A stretch of 64,000 nucleotides of DNA from an uncultured Actinomycetota bacterium (GCA_963718235.1 CAVQYR010000002.1:288001-352000), one strand, 5' to 3'; positions 10,527 through 48,688 are shown, counted from the first letter of the stretch. Notes: generated from the sequence alone by a model not told the origin. Numbers and translations: made by a program.

Positions 10527-12557
<2,031 letters not shown>

Positions 12558-12612
12558 AGGCACGCTCGACACGATGGCTCGAGCCGTCGTCAGACCCCAG
12601 TGGGAGGCCGCC

Positions 12613-36334: not shown

Positions 36335-36553
36335 CCCCTGGGAGACGCACGCGATCGGCACCTCGGTTCGGCCCGCCCTCGCCGCTGCGCGATTCAGGTC
36401 GACCATGGCTGCCCGTGCTGAGCGAGCAAGCCGCCGAGCCGTGGCTTCCGCGCCTTCCTCGATGCCTGCGTGCTCGTCTCGAGCCGCACCGCCTCAGCCC
36501 CTAGCCGCAAGGTCGCCTTCCGCTGCCGCAACCAGGCTGACAGAATCCAGAGA

Positions 36554-37654
36554 GTGGACCCACTTGGCCAGAGCACCGCCGGCTCGAAGACGATCGACAA
36601 GGCACGCCACCTCGGCGGACGGCTGCGCCGACGGGCAGCGAATCTGTGGGCACGGACGGCCGCCGGGGGCCGAGGCAGTCGCCACGATGCAGCGACCCAC
36701 GAGGTGCGGCTGGCGTCGGACCTCTCCATCGTGGAGCAGAGTCCCAAGCAAGGCGACATGCTCAAATGGGTGAGACTCGACCAGGACGCTGTTGTCCTCG
36801 CCCGCGGCTCGAAACCGAAGCTGACTCGGCTGGACGCACACACAACCGTGATTCGAAGTGGTGCCCCCGAGCCGAAGAATCGCGGTGGCTGGCTGGTTGA
36901 GGGCCGACAAGTCACCCCCATTGCCGGGCCCAAGGCACTCATCGACACCGTGGCAGCGCGCGAGATGCGGCGTCTGCTCCGCATGCACAAGGTCAACTGC
37001 GTGATCGATGCCGGGGCGAACATCGGTCAGTTCGCGGGCCGGGTGCGCGAGTCGGGCTTCACCGGCCGGATCATCTCCTTCGAACCGGTCCCGCAGCTGT
37101 TCAGCGTCTTGGCGGAGTCGGCTGCGAACGACTCGGAGTGGCGGACAGTCCAAGCCGCTTTGGGCCGCGAGGACACGACGGCGACCATCAACGTGACTCC
37201 CGGTGCGGGCCGCTTGAGCTCGCTGCTGCCGTCGAGTGAGTACGGGCGACGGAGGCAGGAGCGGCTGGCGGATGCGTACCCGGTCACGGTTGATGTCCGC
37301 CGCCTCGAGTCGCTGCTGCCGGAACTGCTCGACGGCATCGACGAGCCGCGTATCTACCTCAAGATGGACACCCAGGGATACGACCTCGAGGTGTTCGGCG
37401 GAGTGGGCAGCGGATTGGACCTGGTCGTTGCAGTGCAGTCCGAGGTTTCGTCGATCGCACTCTACGAGGGGATGCCCCACCTGACCGAGGCGCTCGACGC
37501 GTACCGCGAAGCAGGCTTCGACCTGTGCGGGCTCTGGCCGATCACCTTCGAGCCTGGCACCCATCGAGCTCTTGAGTTCGACGCGTTGATGGTGCGCGGG
37601 CCGCAGGAAGACCAGGCACGGCCGTCGCGCAGCCCATCACACGCCATACCCTGA
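36554..37654 (+). CDS. FkbM family SAM-dependent methyltransferase
   Basis: VIDAGANIGQF, IISFEPV, YLKMDTQGYDLEVFGG, QSEVS; start uncertain (36554 GTG or 36758 ATG). Confidence 0.85.
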   Translation: MDPLGQSTAGSKTIDKARHLGGRLRRRAANLWARTAAGGRGSRHDAATHEVRLASDLSIVEQSPKQGDMLKWVRLDQDAVVLARGSKPKLTRLDAHTTVIRSGAPEPKNRGGWLVEGRQVTPIAGPKALIDTVAAREMRRLLRMHKVNCVIDAGANIGQFAGRVRESGFTGRIISFEPVPQLFSVLAESAANDSEWRTVQAALGREDTTATINVTPGAGRLSSLLPSSEYGRRRQERLADAYPVTVDVRRLESLLPELLDGIDEPRIYLKMDTQGYDLEVFGGVGSGLDLVVAVQSEVSSIALYEGMPHLTEALDAYREAGFDLCGLWPITFEPGTHRALEFDALMVRGPQEDQARPSRSPSHAIP

Positions 37655-37783
37655 CCGGACTCGAGTGTCCCATCGTCTTCAACGTCGTTGCCCTGGCACC
37701 GTCCTCCAGCGGGGATCCATGCAGTCGGGTGCCAGTTCAATCCGATCAGTATCGGATCGGGAACGGATCCCCCCGGCCAGGCT

Positions 37784-38455
37784 TCACGCCCCCGCGGCAC
37801 TCCCCGCCTCGTCCGTACCGAAGTAGGCATCGAACGCCTTGTACCGTCCGGGTGCGAGATAGTCCAAGATCTTGGCGCGAAACGCGCCATCGGGCTGCGG
37901 GAAGGCCAAGAAGTCGGCGACCTCGTTGACCAGTTCCTCGGTCTTGACGATTGCCTTCTCGTGACTCACGAGCAGACAGGGCCGCCCGCTCGCCAAGACG
38001 AATCCCGTGTTGGTGTTGGCGTTGGCGTTGGACTCATGCAGGGACATCCGGGGCGAACGCCGACGGCCGGGTCGGTCCTTACCCGCCTGACTCAGCGCCG
38101 CGGCGACGGCGTCTCGGTAGACGACGATGAAGTAGGGGTTCCGGATGGCGGGTGCCACCTCTGGCAGGTACCCGGCAGCGGCCGGGAACTTCCAGCCCCA
38201 GACGTCGAACTCGGCGTTACGCGCCTCGATCGTCTCCAACATCTCGGCGCGGGTCCGGTACTGGAAACGAGCGTCCTCGTTGTTCTTGCGCGCACCCACG
38301 TTGCCCAGGTCGAGCCCCAGCGCACGGACGAGCCCCGCGATCATGCTCGTTCCGCCCCGCCGGGTACCGAAGATGACATACGTGCGCTGGGACTCAGGTT
38401 CGGCTGCTGGGTTGATGACCACGCTGGTCTCATTCACCAAGTCGGAGTCGGCCAT
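37784..38455 (-). CDS. Sulfotransferase-like P-loop protein (in frame with upstream GT4, own RBS)
   Basis: AAGGAGA RBS then ATG 38455 MADSDLV; VIFGTRRGGTSMIAG (5'-PSB-like), WGWKFP, IVVYRDAVAAALS (3'-PB-like). Confidence 0.7.
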   Translation of the reverse strand: MADSDLVNETSVVINPAAEPESQRTYVIFGTRRGGTSMIAGLVRALGLDLGNVGARKNNEDARFQYRTRAEMLETIEARNAEFDVWGWKFPAAAGYLPEVAPAIRNPYFIVVYRDAVAAALSQAGKDRPGRRRSPRMSLHESNANANTNTGFVLASGRPCLLVSHEKAIVKTEELVNEVADFLAFPQPDGAFRAKILDYLAPGRYKAFDAYFGTDEAGSAAGA

Positions 38456-39706
38456 GGGTCTCCTTGGTCGCTGGTCGTGAACCTGGCGGCTAGGCGCTCG
38501 AAGCCTGGCTGCGGTGTAGAGGGTCTGCAGTCTGGTCGGTTTGTCGGCAGCCACGTCTTTGGCTGCGGCCAGCTCGCTGATGAGCTGCTCCCAGCGGGCA
38601 GAGATCACCGACTGCGACCGCGTCCGGGCGGTACTCAAGGCCGCGGCCGCAAGCACCTGGCGGCCGTCTTGGCCCAGGTCGATCGTCGCGATGATCTGGT
38701 CGGCAAGGGCCTGCACGTTGCCATTGGGGACGAGGAACCCATTCTTACCTTGCTCGATGATGCTGGCCGGGCCGGAAGGGCAGTCGAAGCTGACCACGGG
38801 GAGCCCGCAGGACATGGCCTCCGCGATCACCATCCCGTATCCCTCGGCTCGGGAGCTGAGCACGAAGATCGATGCCGCTGCGAGCTCGGCGGTCAACCGC
38901 GTGGTGTAGCCCGCCAGGGTGGCCGAGTGCTGCAGACCAAGGCGTTCAATCTGGCTCAGCAGCTGACCGTGCTCAGGCCCCTGGCCGAAGATCTTCAGCT
39001 GCCAGCTCGGGCGGGCCTTCGCCACGATCACCCAGGCGTCCAGCAGCAGGTCGAAGCCCTTGCTGCGCTTCAGTTGTCCCGCTGCCACCACGACCGACTG
39101 CGACAGGTCCGACGGTGGCCCTGGGTAGTCCGGAGTGGCGTTCGGCATGCACTCGATGCGTAGGCCGCGGCCCAGCAGCTTTCGGTATCGGACCGCATCG
39201 GGCTCGGTCAACGTGAGAAACGCGTCCAGGCGCGGCAGGTCCTTCACCATCGCCTGCTTCAGGTCACCGCGGCGGTCCTGGAACGGCCGGTGGTCTTGGC
39301 CGATCCGGACCACCTCGGGTCGACCAAGCCGAGCAACAGCCAAGTTCACTCCGGGTTGCATCCCGACAAGCGCGCCGTCGTGAACGTCAGCCAGGTACCT
39401 CTCCAACGCCCTGTCGGAAGCGATGCTGTAGGCCCGGAAATGCGGCTCGTTCGGTGGCATGAACACGCTCGGAGCCGCTAAGTCCTCGCGCGTCAGGTCA
39501 GACGAAGGCGCCCCCGGCCAGTTCTCGACCAGCGACCGCACGGTCACCCCACGCGGCAGCGCATGCACGGGTTCCTCTTGGTTGCGCACGACGCTGACGA
39601 GCTCTACCTCATGGCGCGTAGCCAGATCCTCAGCGAGGTTGCGGACGACCGTCAGCACTCCTCCGCCTGCACCGAAAACGGTGTGCATGAGAAATCGGAT
39701 CTTCAC
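38456..39706 (-). CDS. Glycosyltransferase family 4 (GT-B); reads through without stop into the downstream sulfotransferase-like ORF (total ORF 37784..39706)
   Basis: GGGVLTVVRNLA, AAGQLKRSKGFDLLL, FVLSSRAEGYGMVIAEAMSCGLPVVSFDCPSGP (ExxxxxxxE). Confidence 0.88.
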
Positions 39707-39778
39707 GAGACTCCAGATCGGGTTAGGTCACCGAGTCGGCATCCTACGGGCAACTCTCGCGGACGTCGTTGTGACAGG

Positions 39779-40882
39779 ATGGGAGTCGTGGAGCTGCCGC
39801 GGGGGCCGGGTTCTTCACCCCCCGTCGTCTTCGTGCACATTGGTTGCCCGAAGTCTGGAACCAGCCACATTCAGGCACGGTTGTCGGCCAACCATGACGA
39901 GGCTGCCCGGCAAGGCCTCTATTGGCCGATGCCGTGGGGCCGCCAGGTCCGGGCTGTCCGGGACGTCCGGTCGCTGGGTGTCGACGACCGACTGAAGCCA
40001 GCTGGAGCCTGGACCCACTTGTGCCGCGAGATCAACAGCTGGGAGGGCGGCGCGGCGCTCGTGTCCATGGAGTGGTTGGTAGGTCTTCGGCCACATCAGA
40101 TCAAGTCCTGCATCGAAGCACTCGAGCCGGCGAGGGTCGAGGTAGTCTGCAGCGCCCGGGACCTGGGGCGCACCTTGCCTGCTCACTGGCAGGAGTCCAC
40201 GCAGAACTACAAGCAGTGGACTTGGGACGAGTTCGTCTCAGCCGTCACCAGCGACAGCGACGTCAGACATCCCGCCAAAGCGGAGTTCTGGAATCAGCAC
40301 AACGTCCCGAACATCCTGCGACGGTGGAACGCAGTCGTGCCAATGGACCGCATCCACCTGGTGACGATCCCACCTGCGGGCACCGACCCCGATGCGCTCT
40401 GGCAACGCTTCGCATCGGTGCTACCGATTGACGGCAGTCGATTCCACCCTCCGGATCGGCAGAACACTTCCCTTGGGGTGGTCTCGGCCAGCCTCATGCG
40501 GCGGGTCAACGAGGAGGCTCGAGTCCGCGGCGTCTCCAAGGCCGTTTACACGCGCTACATCAAGCAGTTGCTGGGCAAACAGGTACTAGCACAACGAAGC
40601 GAGTCGGAGGATCCGATTGCCGTTCCACGGCGCGTCGAAGCCTGGTTGCGCCGCAGAGCCGACTCCATGGTCCGAGAGCTGGCTGACATGCCCGTTGACG
40701 TCGTCGGAAGCCTTGATGACCTTTTTCCCCGCCCCGCCCCATCTGATGGCCGGTCGCCCAATGCGGTCAACGACCACGAGTTGCTCGCAGCCGCGGTCAG
40801 CACGTTGGTGGAAGTTCTAGAGGTGATGGCCCGTGGCGACGCCGGCCCGGAACCGCTCGGGGACACCGGCGCGACGCAATGA
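39779..40882 (+). CDS. Sulfotransferase-like P-loop protein
   Basis: VFVHIGCPKSGTSHIQ, LVSMEWL, SARDLGRTLPAHWQE, LWQRFASVL, NTSLG, VVGSLDDL. Confidence 0.8.
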   Translation: MGVVELPRGPGSSPPVVFVHIGCPKSGTSHIQARLSANHDEAARQGLYWPMPWGRQVRAVRDVRSLGVDDRLKPAGAWTHLCREINSWEGGAALVSMEWLVGLRPHQIKSCIEALEPARVEVVCSARDLGRTLPAHWQESTQNYKQWTWDEFVSAVTSDSDVRHPAKAEFWNQHNVPNILRRWNAVVPMDRIHLVTIPPAGTDPDALWQRFASVLPIDGSRFHPPDRQNTSLGVVSASLMRRVNEEARVRGVSKAVYTRYIKQLLGKQVLAQRSESEDPIAVPRRVEAWLRRRADSMVRELADMPVDVVGSLDDLFPRPAPSDGRSPNAVNDHELLAAAVSTLVEVLEVMARGDAGPEPLGDTGATQ

Positions 40883-40912
40883 GCTCCACGTCAGGGCTGG
40901 TACGCTCCCGAA

Positions 40913-41959
40913 GTGGCCAAGGGCTTTCTGCACATTGGAACAATGAAGTCGGGCAGCACCTTCCTCCAGAGCACGTGCGCCGAGAACCGTCGGGTCCTTC
41001 GACGGGCAGGAATCGGTTTCTACGGACCGGAGACGAGAAGCGCCGTCCTTGACCTGAAGCAGGCGCGCAAGCTCCCCGAAGAGAATGTCGGCGACTGGTC
41101 GAGGTTCGCCGCCAAGGTGAGAGCAACACCAACCGACGTGTTGATCTCCAACGAGTTGCTGTTCCCCATTCCGACCGAGACGATCCGGGAGGTGGCGACC
41201 TCACTCAGCAGCCACGAGTTGCATGTCATCGTCACGCTTCGAGACATCACGAAAGTGGCACCTTCGCACTGGCAGGAGCGCATTGCCGAGGGCTCACGCG
41301 TCGGATGGACCGAGTTCTGCAACGCGGTGTGTCGCGACTCTCGAGTCACGAACGCCTCTCGGGGCTTCTGGGCTGCCTACGACGTCGTACCGGTGATCTC
41401 GAAATGGTCGCAGCTGCTGCCCGCTGAGCGATTCACCGTCGTGGTGGTACCGCCGTCCGGGAGCGACCCCCGGTTGCTGTGGGATCGGTTCCTCGCGGCC
41501 ATCAACGTGCCGGGCGCCGGTACGGAGCTGGCTTCGCACAGCAACCCGTCGATGGGCGCGACTTCCACTGAGCTGCTCCGAGAGGTTGCCGCGCAAGCCA
41601 CGGATCTACCTGGTCTTGACCGACGGCGCGCATTCAGGAACGTGCTCGCAAAGCAAGTCCTGACCCAGCGCAGCTCGAAGGAGCCTCGTTTCACACTCAC
41701 GCCCGCACATCAGACAATTCTCAAGGCACGAGCAATCGAGATGGCAGACGGTATCCGGGCCGCGGGGGTTCGGGTGATCGGCAATCTGGACGACATGATT
41801 CCAGCTGACGAGCCTTCGCCCGGGATCCAACCGGACGAGATCACCGAAGCCCAGCTGCTCGAGGCGGCCGTCTTCGGGTTGGCCGAGATGTGCCGCCAGA
41901 TGGCACAAGACCGAGCGCAGATCATTGCTCTGAAGAACGAGAGCGCCACCGAGCGGTAG
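40913..41959 (+). CDS. Sulfotransferase-like P-loop protein (paralog of upstream gene)
   Basis: FLHIGTMKSGSTFLQ, LISNELL, TLRDITKVAPSHWQE, LWDRFLAAI, NPSMG, VIGNLDDM; TACGCT -10 box 6 nt upstream. Confidence 0.8.
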   Translation: MAKGFLHIGTMKSGSTFLQSTCAENRRVLRRAGIGFYGPETRSAVLDLKQARKLPEENVGDWSRFAAKVRATPTDVLISNELLFPIPTETIREVATSLSSHELHVIVTLRDITKVAPSHWQERIAEGSRVGWTEFCNAVCRDSRVTNASRGFWAAYDVVPVISKWSQLLPAERFTVVVVPPSGSDPRLLWDRFLAAINVPGAGTELASHSNPSMGATSTELLREVAAQATDLPGLDRRRAFRNVLAKQVLTQRSSKEPRFTLTPAHQTILKARAIEMADGIRAAGVRVIGNLDDMIPADEPSPGIQPDEITEAQLLEAAVFGLAEMCRQMAQDRAQIIALKNESATER

Positions 41960-41965
41960 CGGCGG

Positions 41966-44521
41966 TCAGCGGATCAGAGCGTGCACAGCCTCCCGGATCG
42001 TGCGCGACCCGGGCGCGACGCTCGTGGTCCAAGCTGGAAGCTGGTCTGGGTCCATCGACCTGGCGAACAGGTAGCCCTGCCCGTACTCGCAGCCGAGCTT
42101 GCGCAGCCGGTCCCGCACGACCGGCTCCTCGATCCCCTCGGCGATCACCTGCAGACCAAGGTGGTGCGCGAGGTCGATGAGCGAGGTCACGATCGCCGCG
42201 TCCCGGTTGGAGTCGATGATCCGGGCAACGAACGAGCGGTCGATCTTCAGCTGTTGGATGGGGAGCGCACTGAGGTAGGTCAGCGAGGAGTAGCCGGTCC
42301 CGAAGTCGTCCAGGGCCAGTCTGATGCCGAGAGCCCGCAGCTCGCCGAGCAGGGCCAGCGCCCTGGCTTCGTCGCTGATCACGATGCTCTCGGTGATCTC
42401 CAGGGTCAGCAGGTGCGCGGGCAGAGCGTGCCGGGCGAGAACCTCCGCCACCTTCTGCGGCAGGGTCTGGTCGAGAAGTGACCGGGTCGACAAGTTCACC
42501 GAGATGCTGATGGGAAGGCCTTGGCGCTGCCATGTGGCGCAGGCAGCCACCGCCTGGTCGAGCACCTGCTCGGTGAGAGCGGCGATGAGTCCATTGCGCT
42601 CGGCCAGCGGGAGGAAGACCCCGGGGGCCAGCGTGCCGCGCGTCGGATGGTGCCATCGGACCAGCGCCTCAGCGGCGATCACCCGACCGGAGAGCAGGTC
42701 GAGCACCGGTTCGACCTCGATCGCGATCTGACCCTGGCCGATGGCCGAGCGCAGCTCGGCGGTGAGCGACAGCAGGGAGGGGTCGTTCAGGTCGATGTCC
42801 GGCCGGTAGACGACGACGCTCTCGGCTCCGTTCTTCGCGGCATACATCGCGATGTCCGCCCGGCGCAGCAGGTCGGAGACGGTGGTGGCGTGGTCGGGTG
42901 CCAGCGCGATCCCCATCGAGCCGGCGAGGTGGAGCCGTTCCTCCCCGACGACCATCGGCTCGAGCAAGGCCTCGCACAGGGTCTCGGCGACGCCGAGGCC
43001 GTCGTCCTCCACCGGCTCGACCAGCACGGCGAACTCATCGCCGCCGAGCCGGGCCACCGTGACGCCCGGCCCGGCGGCTGCACTCAGGCGGCGTCCGACC
43101 TCGGTGATCAGCGTGTCGCCCACATGGTGTCCGAGGGTGTCGTTGACCGCCTTGAACCCGTTGAGGTCGATGATCAGCATCGCGACGCGCCCCTGGCCCG
43201 ATGTTGCTCTCGCCACTGCTGCGGTCGTCAGAGTCATCAGCTGAGCGCGGTTGGGAAGACCGGTCAGGGGGTCGTGCATGGCCTCGTGTCGGAGCCGGCC
43301 CATGAGCGACTCGTTGTGCATGGCCATCGAGGCGTGGTTCGCAACGGTCTTGATCAGGGTGACGTCGGTCTCGGCGAACCCGCGCACCTCACCGAGGCGG
43401 TCGTAGGCGGCGATTGCGCCCACCGTCTCCCCGTCGACGACCAGCGGTGCCATGACTGCCTCGCGGGCCCCCCGGAGCAGCAAGAACCCGGCCGCCTCGG
43501 TCTGGGTGCAGCTCAGCAGCCGCGCCTCTCCGTCTGCGACGAGCCGGGAGACGGCGAGCAGGACCTGCTTGACGACTTCGCCGCCCTCCGGTTCCACCCG
43601 CTCACCGTCGTAGCGCCAAAGGCTGCCGCTGCCAGCATGGCGGGCGAGTGTGAACACCTCCACGACCTCGGCTCGCAGCAGCTGCCGCGCCTGGCCGAGC
43701 ACGGCCGGCAGCACGTTGGCCGCCGCGGGCGCCGAGCTGAGCTCGCGGCTGAAGCTGAACAGCCGCTCCAGGCTCGTGTGCCGGTCGGACAGGCGGGAGT
43801 AGGCGCGGTAGGACAGCATGAGGGCGATCCCGGAGGCGAGCAAGGGAATCGCTGCCAGTGGTCCGAGTCGCAGGGTCAGCACCGCCACGATGCCGATCGT
43901 CGAGCTCGCGGCGGCCATGACCACCGCCGGCCACGACCCGCGAAGGCCGTCCCTGGGGTTCGCCTCGGTGTACCAGCTGAGGATCAGGGTCAGCACGAGC
44001 AGGTCGACGACGATCGCCAGGGTCGACGCCGCGACCGCGGCGAACCACTCGCGCAGGCCGTCATGCGTGCTGGCCCCGGAGAGCAGGGTGAAGGTGAAGA
44101 GCGCGACGGCCCCGTTCGCGTAGAACAGGGCCAGGTTGAGTGCGGACTTGACTGCGGTCTGACGCCGCAAGAAAAGCACGACGACGGCGGGGCCTACCAC
44201 CTTGGCCAGCATCAGGTCGCCTGGCGTGGAGCAGAACAGGGCGATCACCAGCGGGATCTCGCTGATCGAGATGCTCTTGGCTTCCCGGCCGAACTGGATG
44301 TGGACCACCCACATCTCAGTGGCTGCGAAGGCAGCGGCCAGCACCCACCAGGGGATCTGCTGGTCCGGTGGTGGCCCGGCCAGCTCCAGAGCAGCCAGGA
44401 ACAGGCCCGTTCCGAGGAGGAACAGCAGCACGGTCAGGCCCAGAACGCGCCGGGTCGGGCGGACCACCCCCCGTGGGACCGCCGGGCTCGACCCGCTGAT
44501 GGCGCTCATCCCGGGAGTCAT
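41966..44521 (-). CDS. Membrane-bound bifunctional diguanylate cyclase/phosphodiesterase (multi-TM + GAF + GGDEF + EAL)
   Basis: About 7 N-terminal hydrophobic segments; GAF (APLVVDGETVGAI); HDPLTGLPNR, DLNGFKAVNDTLGH, RLGGDEF; AEALVRW, EITE, DDFGTGYSS, KIDRSF, EGIE, QGY. Confidence 0.93.
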   Translation of the reverse strand: MTPGMSAISGSSPAVPRGVVRPTRRVLGLTVLLFLLGTGLFLAALELAGPPPDQQIPWWVLAAAFAATEMWVVHIQFGREAKSISISEIPLVIALFCSTPGDLMLAKVVGPAVVVLFLRRQTAVKSALNLALFYANGAVALFTFTLLSGASTHDGLREWFAAVAASTLAIVVDLLVLTLILSWYTEANPRDGLRGSWPAVVMAAASSTIGIVAVLTLRLGPLAAIPLLASGIALMLSYRAYSRLSDRHTSLERLFSFSRELSSAPAAANVLPAVLGQARQLLRAEVVEVFTLARHAGSGSLWRYDGERVEPEGGEVVKQVLLAVSRLVADGEARLLSCTQTEAAGFLLLRGAREAVMAPLVVDGETVGAIAAYDRLGEVRGFAETDVTLIKTVANHASMAMHNESLMGRLRHEAMHDPLTGLPNRAQLMTLTTAAVARATSGQGRVAMLIIDLNGFKAVNDTLGHHVGDTLITEVGRRLSAAAGPGVTVARLGGDEFAVLVEPVEDDGLGVAETLCEALLEPMVVGEERLHLAGSMGIALAPDHATTVSDLLRRADIAMYAAKNGAESVVVYRPDIDLNDPSLLSLTAELRSAIGQGQIAIEVEPVLDLLSGRVIAAEALVRWHHPTRGTLAPGVFLPLAERNGLIAALTEQVLDQAVAACATWQRQGLPISISVNLSTRSLLDQTLPQKVAEVLARHALPAHLLTLEITESIVISDEARALALLGELRALGIRLALDDFGTGYSSLTYLSALPIQQLKIDRSFVARIIDSNRDAAIVTSLIDLAHHLGLQVIAEGIEEPVVRDRLRKLGCEYGQGYLFARSMDPDQLPAWTTSVAPGSRTIREAVHALIR

Positions 44522-44602
44522 CGACGGACCGGTGCGTGAGCCTTAGGCGACGGTGGGCACGGGTGGGTCAGATCCACGAGGCGCCGGCGGCGCGGGTGGC
44601 GG

Positions 44603-46324
44603 TCACGAGTAGTCCTCACTGGCCCAGTTGCACCCGGCCCAGGAGGCACCCGACCAGGAGGCACCCGACCAGGAGGCACCCGACCAGGAGGCACCCGACC
44701 AGGAGGCACCGGCCCAGGACGCTCCGGCCCAGGACGCTCCGGCCCAGGACGCTCCGGCCCAGGACGCTCCGGCCCAGGAGGCTCCGGCCCAGGACGCTCC
44801 AGCCCAGGAGGCTCCAGCCCAGGAGGCTCCAGCCCAGGACGCTCCGTTCCACGATCCGCCGTCCCACATGCCGCCGTTCTCACGCTGCGCGGCGACCGCT
44901 GCCGCATCGAACGGGTTGCCGAAGATGTCTTGCTCACCCACGAGGTCGGTGGTGCCGTCGGACAGGTGGACGCCGCCGCGCGAGGTCTCGAGCGACCCAG
45001 CGCCCGAGCCACGCGTCGCCGTCTGGCGCCAGCTGGACGCAGACCATGTCACGCCCCGTTGGAGGTCCACAGTGCGTGGGTTACCAGGAACCCCCCAGAG
45101 GTAGGTCCCCTTCGCGAGCAGCCGCTTCACCTGGTCCGGCGACAGTCCGGGGCGAGCGCTCAGCAGGACCGCGGCGGCCCCGGACGTGAGTGCTGCCGCC
45201 TGGGAGGTTCCGCTGCCCCTCAGGTACTCGGAGTTGATCCCACCCGACTCGCCGAGCTTCGTATCCACGTACGAACCGGGGACTCGCAGTCCCTGCACCC
45301 GCGTGCCCGGTGCGACCACGTCGAGGCGACGTTCGCTCGTGCCCTTGGCGCTGAACGAAGCGAGCCTGTCGTCACTGGCATCGAGCGTGCCCTTGGTGTC
45401 GAGCGCACCGACGGCGATGACATAGGGGTCGGCGGCCGGCATGTCGATCGGGGTACCCCCACGGTTGCCCGCCGAGGCGACCACCACGATGCCGGAGCGC
45501 CAGGCGACCTCGGCGGCGTGGGCCAGGGGATCCAGCGTGTAGTCCTGGGCCGACTCGGTGCCGTAGGACAGGTTGAGCACCCGGATGTTCAGTCCGTCGT
45601 CGTGCGCGTGCTGCACGACCCAGTCGATGCCGGCGATGACCTGAGAGACGTCCGCGCGCCCGACCGCGTCGCCCACCTTGACGTTGACGATCCGAGCGTC
45701 GGGTGCGATGCCCTGGTAGGCACCGGGCTCCGACGAGGAGGCCCGCCCGGCGATCAGGCCGGCCATGAACGTCCCGTGCCCGTTCAGGTCGAGGTAGCGG
45801 GTCGAGTCGGACTGGCCGTCGAAGGACAGGTCCGGCCCGTTGACCACGGTGCTGGGGTCAGCGAGCGGACCCACGGGGGCCACACCGGTGTCGATGAGCG
45901 CGACATCGATGCCCTGTCCCGAGGCTCCGGCGTCCCACGCCGCCGGAGCCTTCATGAGGCGTGCGCTGTTGGAGACCGATCCAGCGTCGCCGACCGGGTC
46001 ATAGCTGTCCGCGCTCGACTCGAGGCTCACATCGGGGCTGACGGTGGCAACGTGGGACAGGGCGCGCAGGGCGGGAACGGCTGACTCCGGGACCCGGACG
46101 ACGGCTGTGTCCATGGTCTCGAAGGCCTGCTCGACACCGACCCCGCTCTCTCCCAGCTCGTCCAGCAGGGCTGGGAGCTGACCGGGCTCGGCGCGCACGA
46201 TGTATGCGGCGGTGGTGTCCGAGCCCGATGGCAAAGTCGTCGCGTGTGCTGTGGCAGGCACGGCCAGTCCGAGCACGACTGCTGCTGCGAGCAGCCGAGC
46301 CGCACGACGGCGGATCCACCCCAT
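44603..46324 (-). CDS. Secreted S8 subtilisin-like serine peptidase with C-terminal Trp pentapeptide repeats
   Basis: Signal peptide MGWIRRRAARLLAAAVVLGLAVPATAHA, I9-like propeptide, triad IDTG / NGHGTFMAG / GSGTSQAA, oxyanion SAGN; alternative start 46354. Confidence 0.93.
   Translation of the reverse strand: MGWIRRRAARLLAAAVVLGLAVPATAHATTLPSGSDTTAAYIVRAEPGQLPALLDELGESGVGVEQAFETMDTAVVRVPESAVPALRALSHVATVSPDVSLESSADSYDPVGDAGSVSNSARLMKAPAAWDAGASGQGIDVALIDTGVAPVGPLADPSTVVNGPDLSFDGQSDSTRYLDLNGHGTFMAGLIAGRASSSEPGAYQGIAPDARIVNVKVGDAVGRADVSQVIAGIDWVVQHAHDDGLNIRVLNLSYGTESAQDYTLDPLAHAAEVAWRSGIVVVASAGNRGGTPIDMPAADPYVIAVGALDTKGTLDASDDRLASFSAKGTSERRLDVVAPGTRVQGLRVPGSYVDTKLGESGGINSEYLRGSGTSQAAALTSGAAAVLLSARPGLSPDQVKRLLAKGTYLWGVPGNPRTVDLQRGVTWSASSWRQTATRGSGAGSLETSRGGVHLSDGTTDLVGEQDIFGNPFDAAAVAAQRENGGMWDGGSWNGASWAGASWAGASWAGASWAGASWAGASWAGASWAGASWAGASWAGASWSGASWSGASWSGASWSGASWAGCNWASEDYS
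44621..44875 (-). repeat. 15-bp coding tandem repeat, 17 units (GGMWD, GGSWN, 9x GASWA, 4x GASWS, GASWA, GCNWA)
   Basis: Plus-strand units ggcccaggaggcacc, cgaccaggaggcacc x4, ggcccaggacgctcc and synonymous variants; core 14 units at 44636-44845. Confidence 0.97.
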
Positions 46325-46676
46325 GCCCGGCGCGCCGGAGTACAGGTCTTCCATGACAGGCCCCCCCTGTCCGCCACCGCGGGTGCGGTCGGCGTCCTAC
46401 CTGGATGCGTTGCGTAACCGATCCACCACGCATCGTGGGGTCGGGGGCGGGCCCGCACAATCCCTCGTGCGGCGTATTCACCCGTAGGGGCGTACCGATT
46501 GCCACTGGTTGGCCCAGCCTTGCGCCCAGTGACCGCGTGGCCGGCTCCGGGCGCAGCGGCGAGGCCCTACGCCTCTAGCCGTGCTCCTCGGGAACGACGA
46601 CCCTTGCAAGTGGGCGGAGGCGACCTCTCGGCAGGGCGGCCTGTCCCGACGCCTCCGGGATCGATGGGGGTGCGTG

Positions 46677-47876
46677 ATGATCACCCGCAAGTCCTTCTTC
46701 GCTGCTGCGGCTGCCTTGGTGCTGGGCTGCACCGCAAGTGTCTCGGTGGGAGCAGCCGTGGCCGCACCGGCAGAGGCGGCGGCGTCCGGCTCGGTGGTCT
46801 CTCGGGTCGGGGTGCCGTGGACGGCGGAGGACGCCACCAGCGGCTCGGCGGTGTTGACGTACGGCAACGCGGGCTGCGAGGCGGTCGACGCCGACGGGTT
46901 CTGCACCAGCGGCCAATGGCCGACCATTCCTGGGGCTCACTGGATCTGGCGCAGCCAGAACGTCACGCCCGAGGAGGACGCGAGCGGCACGCCAGTCGTC
47001 ACGTTCACCGACACCTTCCAGATCGACCAGGCAGGCGGCAGGACCACCCTGAGGGTCTCGGCCGATGACTACTACACCGTCACGCTGAACGGCGAGACGA
47101 TCGGGTCCGGGTCCCTCTCCAGCATCGACACCTACAGGTTGGCTCCGGTCGTCGGGCTGAACACGATCACGGTCGCCGCTTCGAGCAGTTCGGGGCCAGC
47201 CGGGGTGACCTATCGGGTCGACACGACCTGGAAGTCCGCGCTGACCCTGACGGCGTCTGCGGCTCAGGTCACCTACGGACGGTCCACCGTTCTGAACGCG
47301 AGCCTGACTTCGGCGTCGACGAACCGCACCGTGTCGGTGTTCGCTCAGCCGGTCGGGGGCAAGAAGGTTCTCTTGACGAAGGACGAGGTCAACGCCGCCG
47401 GAAGCCTGGACATCCGGGTGACGCCGCGCGCGACCACGACCTACACCGCCAGCTACACCGGGGGTGACGGCTGGTCGGCTGCAAGCTCCAAACCCGTGAA
47501 GGTGGCGGTGGCGGGTCGCTGGGCGGCCAGGAGCCTGGGCGGCTACGACACGGTAGGCAGGTACCGGCTGTACCACTACCGGACCAGTTGCCGACCGCCC
47601 GAGTACAACGGCTGTCCGACCGAGCGCTTCACGCTGGCCCCGGGGCACCCTCGCGAGCGGGTCACGATGACCTTCCAGTACTGGGCCAAGGGTCGCTGGA
47701 GCACATACAGCACGCATCGCTGGCTGCTGAGCAAGCGGAGCGTCATGACCGTGTTCACGTGGTACGACTCACGGGGCATCATCGGCACGCGAATCCGCGT
47801 GGGAGCGACGTTCAACGGAGACGGCAGCCACGCTTCCGCTGCCTCGCCGTGGGTCTACTGGAGGGTGACCCGCTGA
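46677..47876 (+). CDS. Secreted beta-rich protein (jelly-roll/carbohydrate-binding-like N-domain plus Ig-like domains)
   Basis: Signal peptide MITRKSFFAAAAALVLGCTASVSVGAAVA; IPGAHWIW...VTFTDTF...LRVSADDYYTVTLNGETIG..GLNTITV pattern; Thr/Val-rich strands. Confidence 0.7.
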   Translation: MITRKSFFAAAAALVLGCTASVSVGAAVAAPAEAAASGSVVSRVGVPWTAEDATSGSAVLTYGNAGCEAVDADGFCTSGQWPTIPGAHWIWRSQNVTPEEDASGTPVVTFTDTFQIDQAGGRTTLRVSADDYYTVTLNGETIGSGSLSSIDTYRLAPVVGLNTITVAASSSSGPAGVTYRVDTTWKSALTLTASAAQVTYGRSTVLNASLTSASTNRTVSVFAQPVGGKKVLLTKDEVNAAGSLDIRVTPRATTTYTASYTGGDGWSAASSKPVKVAVAGRWAARSLGGYDTVGRYRLYHYRTSCRPPEYNGCPTERFTLAPGHPRERVTMTFQYWAKGRWSTYSTHRWLLSKRSVMTVFTWYDSRGIIGTRIRVGATFNGDGSHASAASPWVYWRVTR

Positions 47877-47902
47877 GTCGCCACGGGGTGAGCGAGACGT
47901 GG

Positions 47903-48688
47903 TCAGCGCGGGGGACGGCGGTAGGCCTGCGCGTTGCCGACGTCCGGCTCGAACCCGACCCGGCGGTAGACCCGCCCGGCCGGGTTCGTCGCCTCGGTGA
48001 TGATGACCCACCGGTCACAGCCGTGCGACGCCGCCCATCGGGCGGCCACGCCGAGCAGGTGTGAGGCGAGCCCCTGGCGCCGGTGCTCCACCTCGGTGCT
48101 GACCGCCTGGTAGCGCGCCGTGGTGCCGCACCGGACGATGCCGAGGTCGGCCACGAGGGTGTCACCGGAAAACGCGCCGAAGAACGCTGCGACCTCCCGG
48201 TCGGAGAGGTCGCGACGGGTCTGGACGCGCGCGCGGACGAAACGCTCGTGCCCGGTCGGCTCGTACTCGCCGGTCCGGTCGTTCTCGGCCAGCTCCCGCC
48301 CCACGCACTGCTCCCAGTCGTCGCCGCCGAGCCGGCGGACGGTGTAGTCCTCGGCCAGCGGCGTCTGCCTCGGCAGCGTGCGCGTGCTGAGCACGTCGTC
48401 CAGCTCCAGGTCGAGTCCCTGCGCCACCCACGCGTCCGCATCGTCGGGCATCCGGGCCAGCCCGATCGCGACCCAGGTGGCCCGGGGGAAGGTGTCGTGG
48501 AATGCGGCGACCCAACGCGGGGCGTCGTCCACGGTGTCCGCGGCGGTCACGAACAAGCAGTTGCCCCAGTGGTAGTCGGGGTTCAGCGGGGTGCGGACGA
48601 CGAGGTGGTCCCCCCGGTCCTCCACGACCGACCCGCTGTACTCAAGCACGGCGAGGTCGGTGGCCCATCCGGGGGAGAGGTCGCGCAT
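47903..48688 (-). CDS. GNAT family N-acetyltransferase
   Basis: GWATDLAV..VRTPLNPDYHWGNCL; ARYQAVSTEVEHRRQGLASHL, AGRVYRRVGF. Confidence 0.85.
   Translation of the reverse strand: MRDLSPGWATDLAVLEYSGSVVEDRGDHLVVRTPLNPDYHWGNCLFVTAADTVDDAPRWVAAFHDTFPRATWVAIGLARMPDDADAWVAQGLDLELDDVLSTRTLPRQTPLAEDYTVRRLGGDDWEQCVGRELAENDRTGEYEPTGHERFVRARVQTRRDLSDREVAAFFGAFSGDTLVADLGIVRCGTTARYQAVSTEVEHRRQGLASHLLGVAARWAASHGCDRWVIITEATNPAGRVYRRVGFEPDVGNAQAYRRPPR

Follow-up and report, generated by a model that had tools for sequence, protein, structure and literature searches.

A gene pair on the minus strand of a 64,000-nucleotide stretch of DNA from an uncultured Actinomycetota bacterium (GCA_963718235.1 CAVQYR010000002.1:288001-352000; hereafter the window) encodes a putatively secreted subtilisin-type (S8) protease with a tail of tryptophan pentapeptides and, just downstream, a membrane sensor with GAF, GGDEF and EAL domains. 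The comparison of genomic sequences reported here gives good support to the pair as a conserved signalling unit of two genes, kept across soil Actinomycetota and Chloroflexota. Concerning the mechanism, we see an even chance that the exported repeat is the extracellular input of the sensor, with or without processing by the S8 domain. A preliminary description of the window had outlined both open reading frames (ORFs) with the boundaries given in Table 1, and had placed the sensor about 80 nucleotides downstream of the protease on the same strand; both ORFs were recovered as drawn, on the minus strand, and the gap is 81 nucleotides.

Conservation of the gene pair

Seventy-nine loci anchored on an S8 gene were taken from contigs of one genome per species, with titles naming Actinomycetota, Mycobacteriales, Frankiales, Thermoleophilia, Dormibacterota, Chloroflexia and a few other bins, and the membrane part of the sensor was sought in them by tblastn with the sequence from the window. 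The domain was found beside the protease gene in 66 of the 79 loci, in two or more phyla. One carrier of the pair, at locus L070, is the cultivable Blastococcus deserti CGMCC 1.15935. Nine of the 13 loci without it have less than 200 nucleotides after the S8 gene, and 66 of 70 evaluable loci are therefore positive; the linkage of repeat-tailed S8 genes to membrane sensors, which the preliminary description had suggested looking for across genomes, is thus borne out. Placement is also regular: in 60 of the 66 loci the domain follows directly downstream with the same orientation, in four (L048, L049, L056 and L072) it is upstream on the same strand, and in two (L016 and L057) it is on the opposite strand. 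The spacer between the genes ranges from -4 to 99 nucleotides in 33 related loci when the sensor is given its most upstream possible start. Among the loci without the domain, L017 encodes a different membrane protein, a PAS-histidine kinase, 10 nucleotides downstream of the S8 gene, and in L058 a gene for a membrane GGDEF-EAL protein lies at a distance of 3 kb, on the opposite strand. Locus L017 also carries a gene for a trypsin-like peptidase after the kinase (11771-12604, plus strand; PF13365, 84.8 bits).

In an even sample of 201 genomes of the phylum, from which three unpublished genomes were removed so that 198 published ones were counted, 69 of 92 hits to the S8 family had the membrane domain within 2.5 kb downstream. 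The domain was also present in 46 of the 47 genomes with the S8 family, and 11 genomes had the domain only. With 46 of the 198 sampled genomes, the module is common in the phylum. Counted from the sensor side, 66 of 128 profile hits had an S8 gene upstream on the same strand and one had an S8 gene nearby on the opposite strand; four had a divergent S8 gene, seven a stand-alone repeat ORF, and 13 were not evaluable.

Within the taxonomic family of the window, the pair was found in two of 19 other genomes (G005 and G006). In both, window positions 42025-46439, a stretch of 4.4 kb, are all that is kept as one block, at 75-78% identity, and the flanks of the window are located elsewhere; three further genomes (G001, from the same genus, G003 and G008) have the flanks and no pair block. 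No third conserved gene accompanies the pair, the largest family of flanking genes being found in six loci.

The protease and its repeat tail

The protease matches Peptidase_S8 (PF00082) over residues 146-415 at 146.6 bits, compared with a cut-off of 21.8. The catalytic triad (D155, H193 and S384), described earlier as intact, and the oxyanion residue N297 show no variation across 32 aligned members of the family. The translation begins with a hydrophobic, signal-like segment. In the AlphaFold 2 model, which has a mean predicted local distance difference test score (pLDDT) of 75.5, residues 1-40 fall below 50, the catalytic part exceeds 80, and a pro-domain-like beta-alpha unit occupies residues 48-107. 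A family-specific extension that follows the catalytic domain has blocks with pLDDT values of 71-92 and reaches residue 500 in the model; no Pfam family matched this extension (residues 416-495), in which G473, E474, D476 and G479 of the sequence GEQDIFG are invariant among 32 relatives. The nearest solved chains in a structure search, 9ues_B and 3afg_A, cover the catalytic part alone (residues 128-414). These features suggest a secreted, active-looking S8 enzyme, with a C-terminal run of x-G-x-S-W units as its hallmark.

A database search returned 7,799 homologues at E <= 0.001 among 8,000 scored candidates, and their source annotations are only "AprX" or "S8 family peptidase". Family PF26036 is listed for four homologues (P0036, P0064, P0109 and P0118); the copy of Pfam used here returns no such family. 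A mycosin identity was considered and rejected: TIGR03921 is the best-scoring NCBIfam model, at 141.7 bits (E 3.1e-41), which is below its cut-off of 278.75. The C terminus does not have the transmembrane anchor typical of mycosins, as the repeats in the translation are followed by ASEDYS with no hydrophobic helix.

The tail holds 17 tryptophans within the last 88 residues, with 16 spacings of exactly five residues, in agreement with the 17 tandem tryptophan pentapeptides of the preliminary description. The units run in the order DGGSW, NGASW, nine copies of AGASW, four of SGASW and AGCNW, before the final ASEDYS. At the DNA level, Tandem Repeats Finder reports an array at 44634-44846 with a period of 15, 14.2 copies, 93% matches and a score of 272; it is made up of identical units arranged in blocks, among which there are five synonymous variants and a single alanine-to-serine change. 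Comparable tails are present in all 120 of the 120 best homologues (GASWA, GASWD, GSSWA, GNSWS, GTSWS and similar), and tails at the other loci contain 9-26 tryptophan units. The repeat period depends on the lineage (5, 7-10 or 9 residues), around a constant [ST]-W core. The tail of the window was modelled with a pLDDT of approximately 25 and no confident fold, and this unfolded prediction, together with the differing periods, is easier to reconcile with a short linear motif in repeated form than with a single rigid solenoid. The earlier proposal had left the choice between many near-identical tryptophan peptides and a tryptophan-ladder solenoid; the differing periods argue against the solenoid as a single rigid structure.

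Membership of the pentapeptide repeat family PF00805 was tried and rejected, as the tail alone scored 14.7 bits (E 0.023) compared with a cut-off of 20.2. The window's own genome gave two other kinds of match to the tail. One is a low-complexity region that is unrelated; the other is an ordinary secreted pentapeptide-repeat protein of 562 residues (G000:C1:2115440-2117128; L106 941-2629, minus strand), which matched weakly (E 6.2e-4) via its repeat composition. No small proteins of 54-174 residues resembling the tail were found in the database search. Far more units were noted in a divergent S8 protein of 627 residues (L154 848-2728), with roughly 45 tryptophan units of the [ST]W[DA] type.

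Repeat genes without a protease domain

Upstream DNA was inspected for all 52 sensor hits that were first left unpaired in the phylum sample. Four have divergent S8 genes or fragments with other tryptophan repeats upstream (L120, L125, L141 and L154), seven have a stand-alone repeat ORF, four could not be evaluated, and nothing was detected for 37.

The stand-alone ORFs encode no protease domain and were found in three lineages. In L116, a signal peptide is followed by approximately 19 GASLT units, and the ORF lies 14 nucleotides before a GAF-GGDEF-EAL sensor. Three species of one genus (L121, L122 and L134) share a conserved signal peptide and GISW[VT] units of 7-10 residues, encoded ahead of a PAS-histidine kinase sensor. 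Three species from two genera of one family (L128, L129 and L136) have STTWSR units of 9 residues directly before the sensor. Occurrence of the repeat beside the sensor without an enzyme in three lineages points to the repeat, and not the enzyme, as the partner of the sensor. Because the stand-alone repeats lack an enzyme, a role as an anchor without cargo makes little sense for them, but a role as a ligand or ligand precursor does.

Two neighbouring features were recorded. A 478-residue ORF lies approximately 600 nucleotides upstream of the GASLT repeat gene (L116 1431-2867, plus strand; genome G069), and if it belongs to a mobile element, loss of the S8 domain at this locus could be the result of a rearrangement. 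Classical pentapeptide repeats (ANLTN and ANLSN) are encoded about 1.6 kb upstream of another MASE9-like sensor (L156 941-1131; genome G236), which may be chance or a further repeat partner.

The membrane domain of the sensor

The GAF, GGDEF and EAL domains named in the preliminary description, and the intact RLGGDEF, EAL and DDFGTGYSS motifs, are upheld by Pfam matches and by the translation (Table 1); among 66 related sensor ORFs, 46 contain RLGGDEF. The membrane domain that precedes them has no Pfam hit. The MASE9 model (PF20972, cut-off 24.3 bits) was unmatched at E <= 10, and a genome-wide search for this family misses the sensor gene. The same model reaches 14 of 58 aligned relatives at E <= 1, the best at 2.6e-5. 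An hhalign comparison between 58 domains linked to S8 genes and 23 canonical members of MASE9 from the same class gave a probability of 99.1% and an E value of 1.7e-18 over 223 columns, and a K-x-x-F-N motif is common to window-type domains and canonical MASE9. On the strength of this match and the shared motif, we assign the membrane domain to a divergent branch of MASE9.

In the main text of the preprint by Galperin and Chou (bioRxiv 10.1101/2021.11.05.467447), MASE9 is described as eight segments, two of them too short to span the membrane, with an intramembrane pair; ligand binding within the membrane is proposed there, a single, poorly expressed characterised MASE9 protein is named, and the words "protease" and "subtilisin" are absent. 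With MASE9 as presented in that text, the domain of the window has in common eight helices, two of them short, charged and polar residues inside the membrane and fusion to c-di-GMP (cyclic diguanylate) enzymes. It differs in being out of reach of the Pfam model and in its linkage, as canonical MASE9 genes are not linked to the protease: in the same class they mostly encode proteins of approximately 440-520 residues, with a tryptophan-tailed S8 gene upstream in one of 25 loci.

AlphaFold 2 modelled the membrane domain with a pLDDT of 91.8 and a predicted template modelling score of 0.84. The model has eight helices, two of them short (residues 23-47, 58-70, 88-97, 100-119, 123-148, 156-185, 197-219 and 221-263), and so replaces the earlier estimate of about seven transmembrane segments. 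It includes a small beta-hairpin on the side assigned as cytoplasmic; the outer loops are very short, and the net loop charge favours a topology with the N terminus inside. When the model was compared with 48,161 chains by VIA-align, the top 15 were all S-components from transporters of the energy-coupling factor (ECF) type, CbiM/NikM-type included (Z 13.0-8.9, root-mean-square deviation 3.2-4.7 A, alignments of 147-185 residues), and the chain that came next, an unrelated one, had a Z of 7.4. Foldseek also ranked ECF-transporter S-components first, with TM-scores of 0.64-0.67 and a best E value of 3.1e-3. Because the top rows comprise a uniform family with a gap in Z below them, we accept the likeness: the membrane domain is likely, on the basis of the predicted model, to have an S-component-like, small-ligand-binding fold. 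The matches include RibU, BioY, FolT, ThiT, PanT, BtuM and CbiM/NikM; two helices of the window's domain are extra. At the sequence level, no S-component family was matched, save by one member at E 0.15.

Small ligands are bound by S-components close to the outer membrane face. Fusion of the S-component-like domain to GAF-GGDEF-EAL argues for a receptor role. An S-component-like fold has been reported for the 5TMR-LYT sensor kinases (PMC11109136; Partipilo and Slotboom 2024), and the order seen here, a membrane domain, GAF and then a kinase or GGDEF-EAL, mirrors that of these receptors; neither MASE domains nor proteases are mentioned in the main text of that paper. The 5TMR-LYT family (PF07694) was not among the matches of the window's domain, nor among the 25 most frequent of 38 families that the 58 relatives hit at E <= 1.

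Exchange of output domains and riboswitch links

HisKA and HATPase_c replace GGDEF-EAL in eight loci (L042, L050, L051, L061, L062, L066, L069 and L074), and GAF was detected in seven of these kinase variants (not in L069). A further locus, L047, has a GGDEF-only output. As the output is swapped and the membrane domain is kept, mostly with GAF, the membrane domain stands out as the input module that is tied to the protease. Seven of the kinase variants (L066 left out) and L017 were scanned for a response regulator within 1.3 kb downstream on the same strand, and one was found in one of these eight loci (L051).

Two loci have a riboswitch directly before the S8 gene: c-di-GMP-I in L048 (72 bits) and c-di-GMP-I-GGC in L014 (67.8 bits). 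These are two of nine loci in a batch titled mostly Chloroflexia or Dormibacterota; no riboswitch was found in the nine loci of another batch, with the titles Actinomycetota, Actinomycetes or Mycobacteriales. In the window, Rfam gave no match at E <= 1 in 41000-48000, and there is no riboswitch (RF01051 or RF03167) before the protease gene.

Features of the window and surrounding genes

The features of the pair are collected in Table 1. No terminator-like site was found in 41500-47000, including between the two genes, and no promoter-like site on the strand of the pair was found in the upstream region (46355-46580).

Table 1. Coordinates of the protease-sensor pair and its parts in the window
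Feature	Position	Strand	Basis
Membrane sensor gene: MASE9-like, GAF, GGDEF, EAL; 851 residues	41966..44521	-	ORF; Pfam
MASE9-like, S-component-like membrane domain (likely), residues 1-265	43727..44521	-	hhalign; AlphaFold 2; structure search
GAF domain, residues 270-400	43322..43714	-	PF01590, 29.2 bits (cut-off 22.4)
GGDEF domain, residues 414-565, RLGGDEF intact	42827..43282	-	PF00990, 136.1 bits
EAL domain, residues 589-821, EALVR and DDFGTGYSS intact	42059..42757	-	PF00563, 242.7 bits
Intergenic spacer, 81 nucleotides, protease stop to sensor start	44522..44602	-	Sequence
S8 (subtilisin-type) pre-pro-protease gene	44603..46354	-	ORF, 583 residues; PF00082
Predicted signal peptide region, residues 1 to about 37, hydrophobic core LLAAAVVLGLAVPATAHA	46244..46354	-	Reading of the translation
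Catalytic S8 domain, residues 146-415	45110..45919	-	Range of Pfam match
Family-specific extension, residues 416-495	44870..45109	-	Invariant columns; confident model; no Pfam family
Tryptophan pentapeptide repeat tail, residues 496-577: 17 tryptophans, 16 units x-G-x-S-W	44624..44869	-	Repeat analysis
Upstream region of the pair, facing the divergent gene at 46581	46355..46580	-	Sequence

The divergent gene (46581-47876, plus strand) encodes a 431-residue ORF with below-cut-off matches to Big_3_5 and Cadherin-like, and it is not kept beside the pair elsewhere. On the other side, the region 36470-41959 has a lower guanine-cytosine content than the approximately 0.70 with which it was compared (0.64-0.66). 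It contains an ORF for an FkbM-type methyltransferase, a 640-residue GT4 glycosyltransferase extended by a long additional C-terminal part, and two adjoining ORFs (39563-40882 and 40913-41959) that have neither a Pfam nor an NCBIfam family; it looks like a glycan-modification islet.

Discussion

If the repeat is indeed the input of the sensor, the exported repeat would be displayed on the outer side of the membrane. It could arrive as a flexible multivalent string or as short tryptophan peptides excised by the S8 domain to which it is attached; the cleavage sites of subtilisins follow large hydrophobic residues. A tryptophan-containing unit would then occupy the ligand pocket of the S-component-like membrane domain, and the resulting change would pass via the long helix and GAF to shift the balance of c-di-GMP synthesis (GGDEF) versus breakdown (EAL). 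In some Chloroflexia relatives, the riboswitch before the protease gene might close a c-di-GMP feedback loop, although the window has no riboswitch at this position. The preliminary description had proposed a self-contained module of protease, repeat and receptor. The conserved unit, kept as a context-independent block, has stood; the repeat as the sensed partner gains indirect support from the stand-alone repeat ORFs and from the predicted S-component-like fold.

Several results weigh against the repeat as the sensed signal. For 37 of the 128 sensor hits, about a third of those evaluable, no repeat gene was detectable; sensors of this kind indicate that family members can work without an adjacent repeat gene. 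Conversely, L005 and L009 have tailed S8 genes and no sensor nearby. The stand-alone repeat ORFs have no counterpart in the protein database (for L121, no relatives of 87-279 residues at E <= 0.001), so that the case for their being genes depends on conservation at the level of a genus or family, and the STTWS ORFs of L128, L129 and L136 have no obvious signal peptide. Co-variation of the repeat with the transmembrane domain, which the preliminary description had suggested as a check, was not seen between repeat-unit charge and the charge of the sensor outer loops (Spearman rho -0.16, p 0.25, n 56); the control with inner loops gave a rho of -0.13. Co-folding of the membrane domain with S8 residues 430-583, a partner whose fold is uncertain, gave an interface score (ipSAE) of 0.00 in both runs and speaks neither for nor against this reading. 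The structure tool cautions that Z values up to approximately 13 can come from common arrangements of helical bundles. Finally, tails with a strict period of five residues and an A-S-W-x-G pattern, together with the A-S-L-T-G units of L116, would also be compatible with a beta-helix of pentapeptide repeats. Such proteins (PF00805, A[D/N]LXX) have the same strict period, with a small residue at i-2 and a hydrophobic residue at i, and the A-S-L-T-G units of the stand-alone L116 protein fit their consensus; the tail differs in having tryptophan where PF00805 has leucine or phenylalanine, in its lack of an AlphaFold 2 fold, and in the periods of 7-10 residues of related tails.

Some of these results would suit a tail that serves as an envelope anchor, holding the protease at the membrane interface or cell wall to trim envelope or matrix proteins, with the sensor independently following some state of the membrane and co-expressed only for a common part in surface remodelling. 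Tryptophan strongly favours membrane interfaces, the sequence and period of the tail vary widely between lineages, its charge does not co-vary with the sensor loops, and about a third of the evaluable sensors are without a detectable repeat gene. The best-scoring NCBIfam model of the protease, at 141.7 bits and below the cut-off, is also that of a membrane-anchored enzyme, mycosin. We nevertheless regard an anchor as unlikely to be the explanation: stand-alone repeat proteins without an enzyme domain precede the same sensors, and adjacency outlasts both the exchange of output domains and changes of genomic context. The same stand-alone ORFs, which take the place of the protease in three lineages, speak against the protease as a c-di-GMP-controlled output alone, for dispersal or matrix turnover, in which the shared operon would only couple expression of the two proteins without contact between them. 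Neither the window nor the nine Actinomycetota-type loci have a riboswitch, and the pair persists in histidine-kinase variants that have no c-di-GMP enzyme. This account is in our view distinctly unlikely, even though c-di-GMP riboswitches precede the S8 gene in L048 and L014, secreted proteases are under c-di-GMP riboswitches in Clostridioides difficile, and the S8 family is almost never found without the sensor, which is often found alone.

The kinase variants also bear on inside-out control like that of LapD and LapG, in which c-di-GMP-bound GGDEF-EAL would alter the membrane domain to capture or release the protease via its tryptophan tail. In Pseudomonas fluorescens, LapG is a secreted cysteine protease to whose action LapD is linked, and LapD has degenerate domains, HAMP and a large periplasmic domain for inside-out signalling. 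The layout is alike in that a membrane GGDEF-EAL protein is encoded beside a secreted protease, and NF045673 was matched at E 3.7e-40, although this reflects generic GGDEF-EAL similarity and the score of 137.9 bits falls below the cut-off of 1020. Several features differ: the partner here is an S8 enzyme, the GGDEF and EAL motifs are intact and not degenerate, no HAMP or LapD_MoxY_N periplasmic domain was found with Pfam, and the outer loops are very short. Moreover, the output may be a histidine kinase, and the kinase variants cannot work in this way; the swapped output therefore argues against such a mechanism, which we consider very improbable.

Two other known systems invite comparison. 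Bacillus Phr pentapeptides are released from exported precursors by subtilisin, Epr and Vpr; each precursor yields one peptide from a separate gene, and once imported the peptides are detected intracellularly by Rap proteins. The likeness would be an S8 protease outside the cell that releases five-residue signalling peptides. Here, however, the protease itself carries the units, in 16 copies, a membrane domain is the candidate receptor, and processing is a proposal. Mycosins, which are associated with type VII secretion, are likewise actinobacterial S8 enzymes, and their model TIGR03921 is the best NCBIfam match. A C-terminal element joins them to a polytopic membrane complex, whereas the C terminus of the present protease is a tryptophan repeat and not a transmembrane helix. 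In agreement with the preliminary description, which knew of no characterised system with this architecture, no description of the protease-sensor pairing was found in the literature searched, including the main texts of the MASE9 and 5TMR-LYT papers discussed above.

To our knowledge, few signals have been assigned to the membrane-embedded sensor domains of the MASE type. The pair offers a concrete, genetically encoded candidate signal for one family of such sensors, and it would extend the link from transporter S-components to receptors, so far described for 5TMR-LYT kinases, to c-di-GMP enzymes. Should the repeat be processed into peptides, it would constitute a polyprotein-style signal fused to its own protease. 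More broadly, and more tentatively, the pair may represent a new self-contained signalling cassette, a possibility that we rate as appreciable but short of probable: a multi-copy tryptophan motif would encode the ligand of an S-component-like (MASE9-type) receptor and be exported at the tail end of its own maturation protease or as a stand-alone protein, and binding of a tryptophan unit in the intramembrane pocket would set c-di-GMP or kinase output. Were this so, it would provide the first ligand assigned to any MASE9-family sensor, and an autocrine or quorum-type circuit would be widespread in soil Actinomycetota and Chloroflexota.

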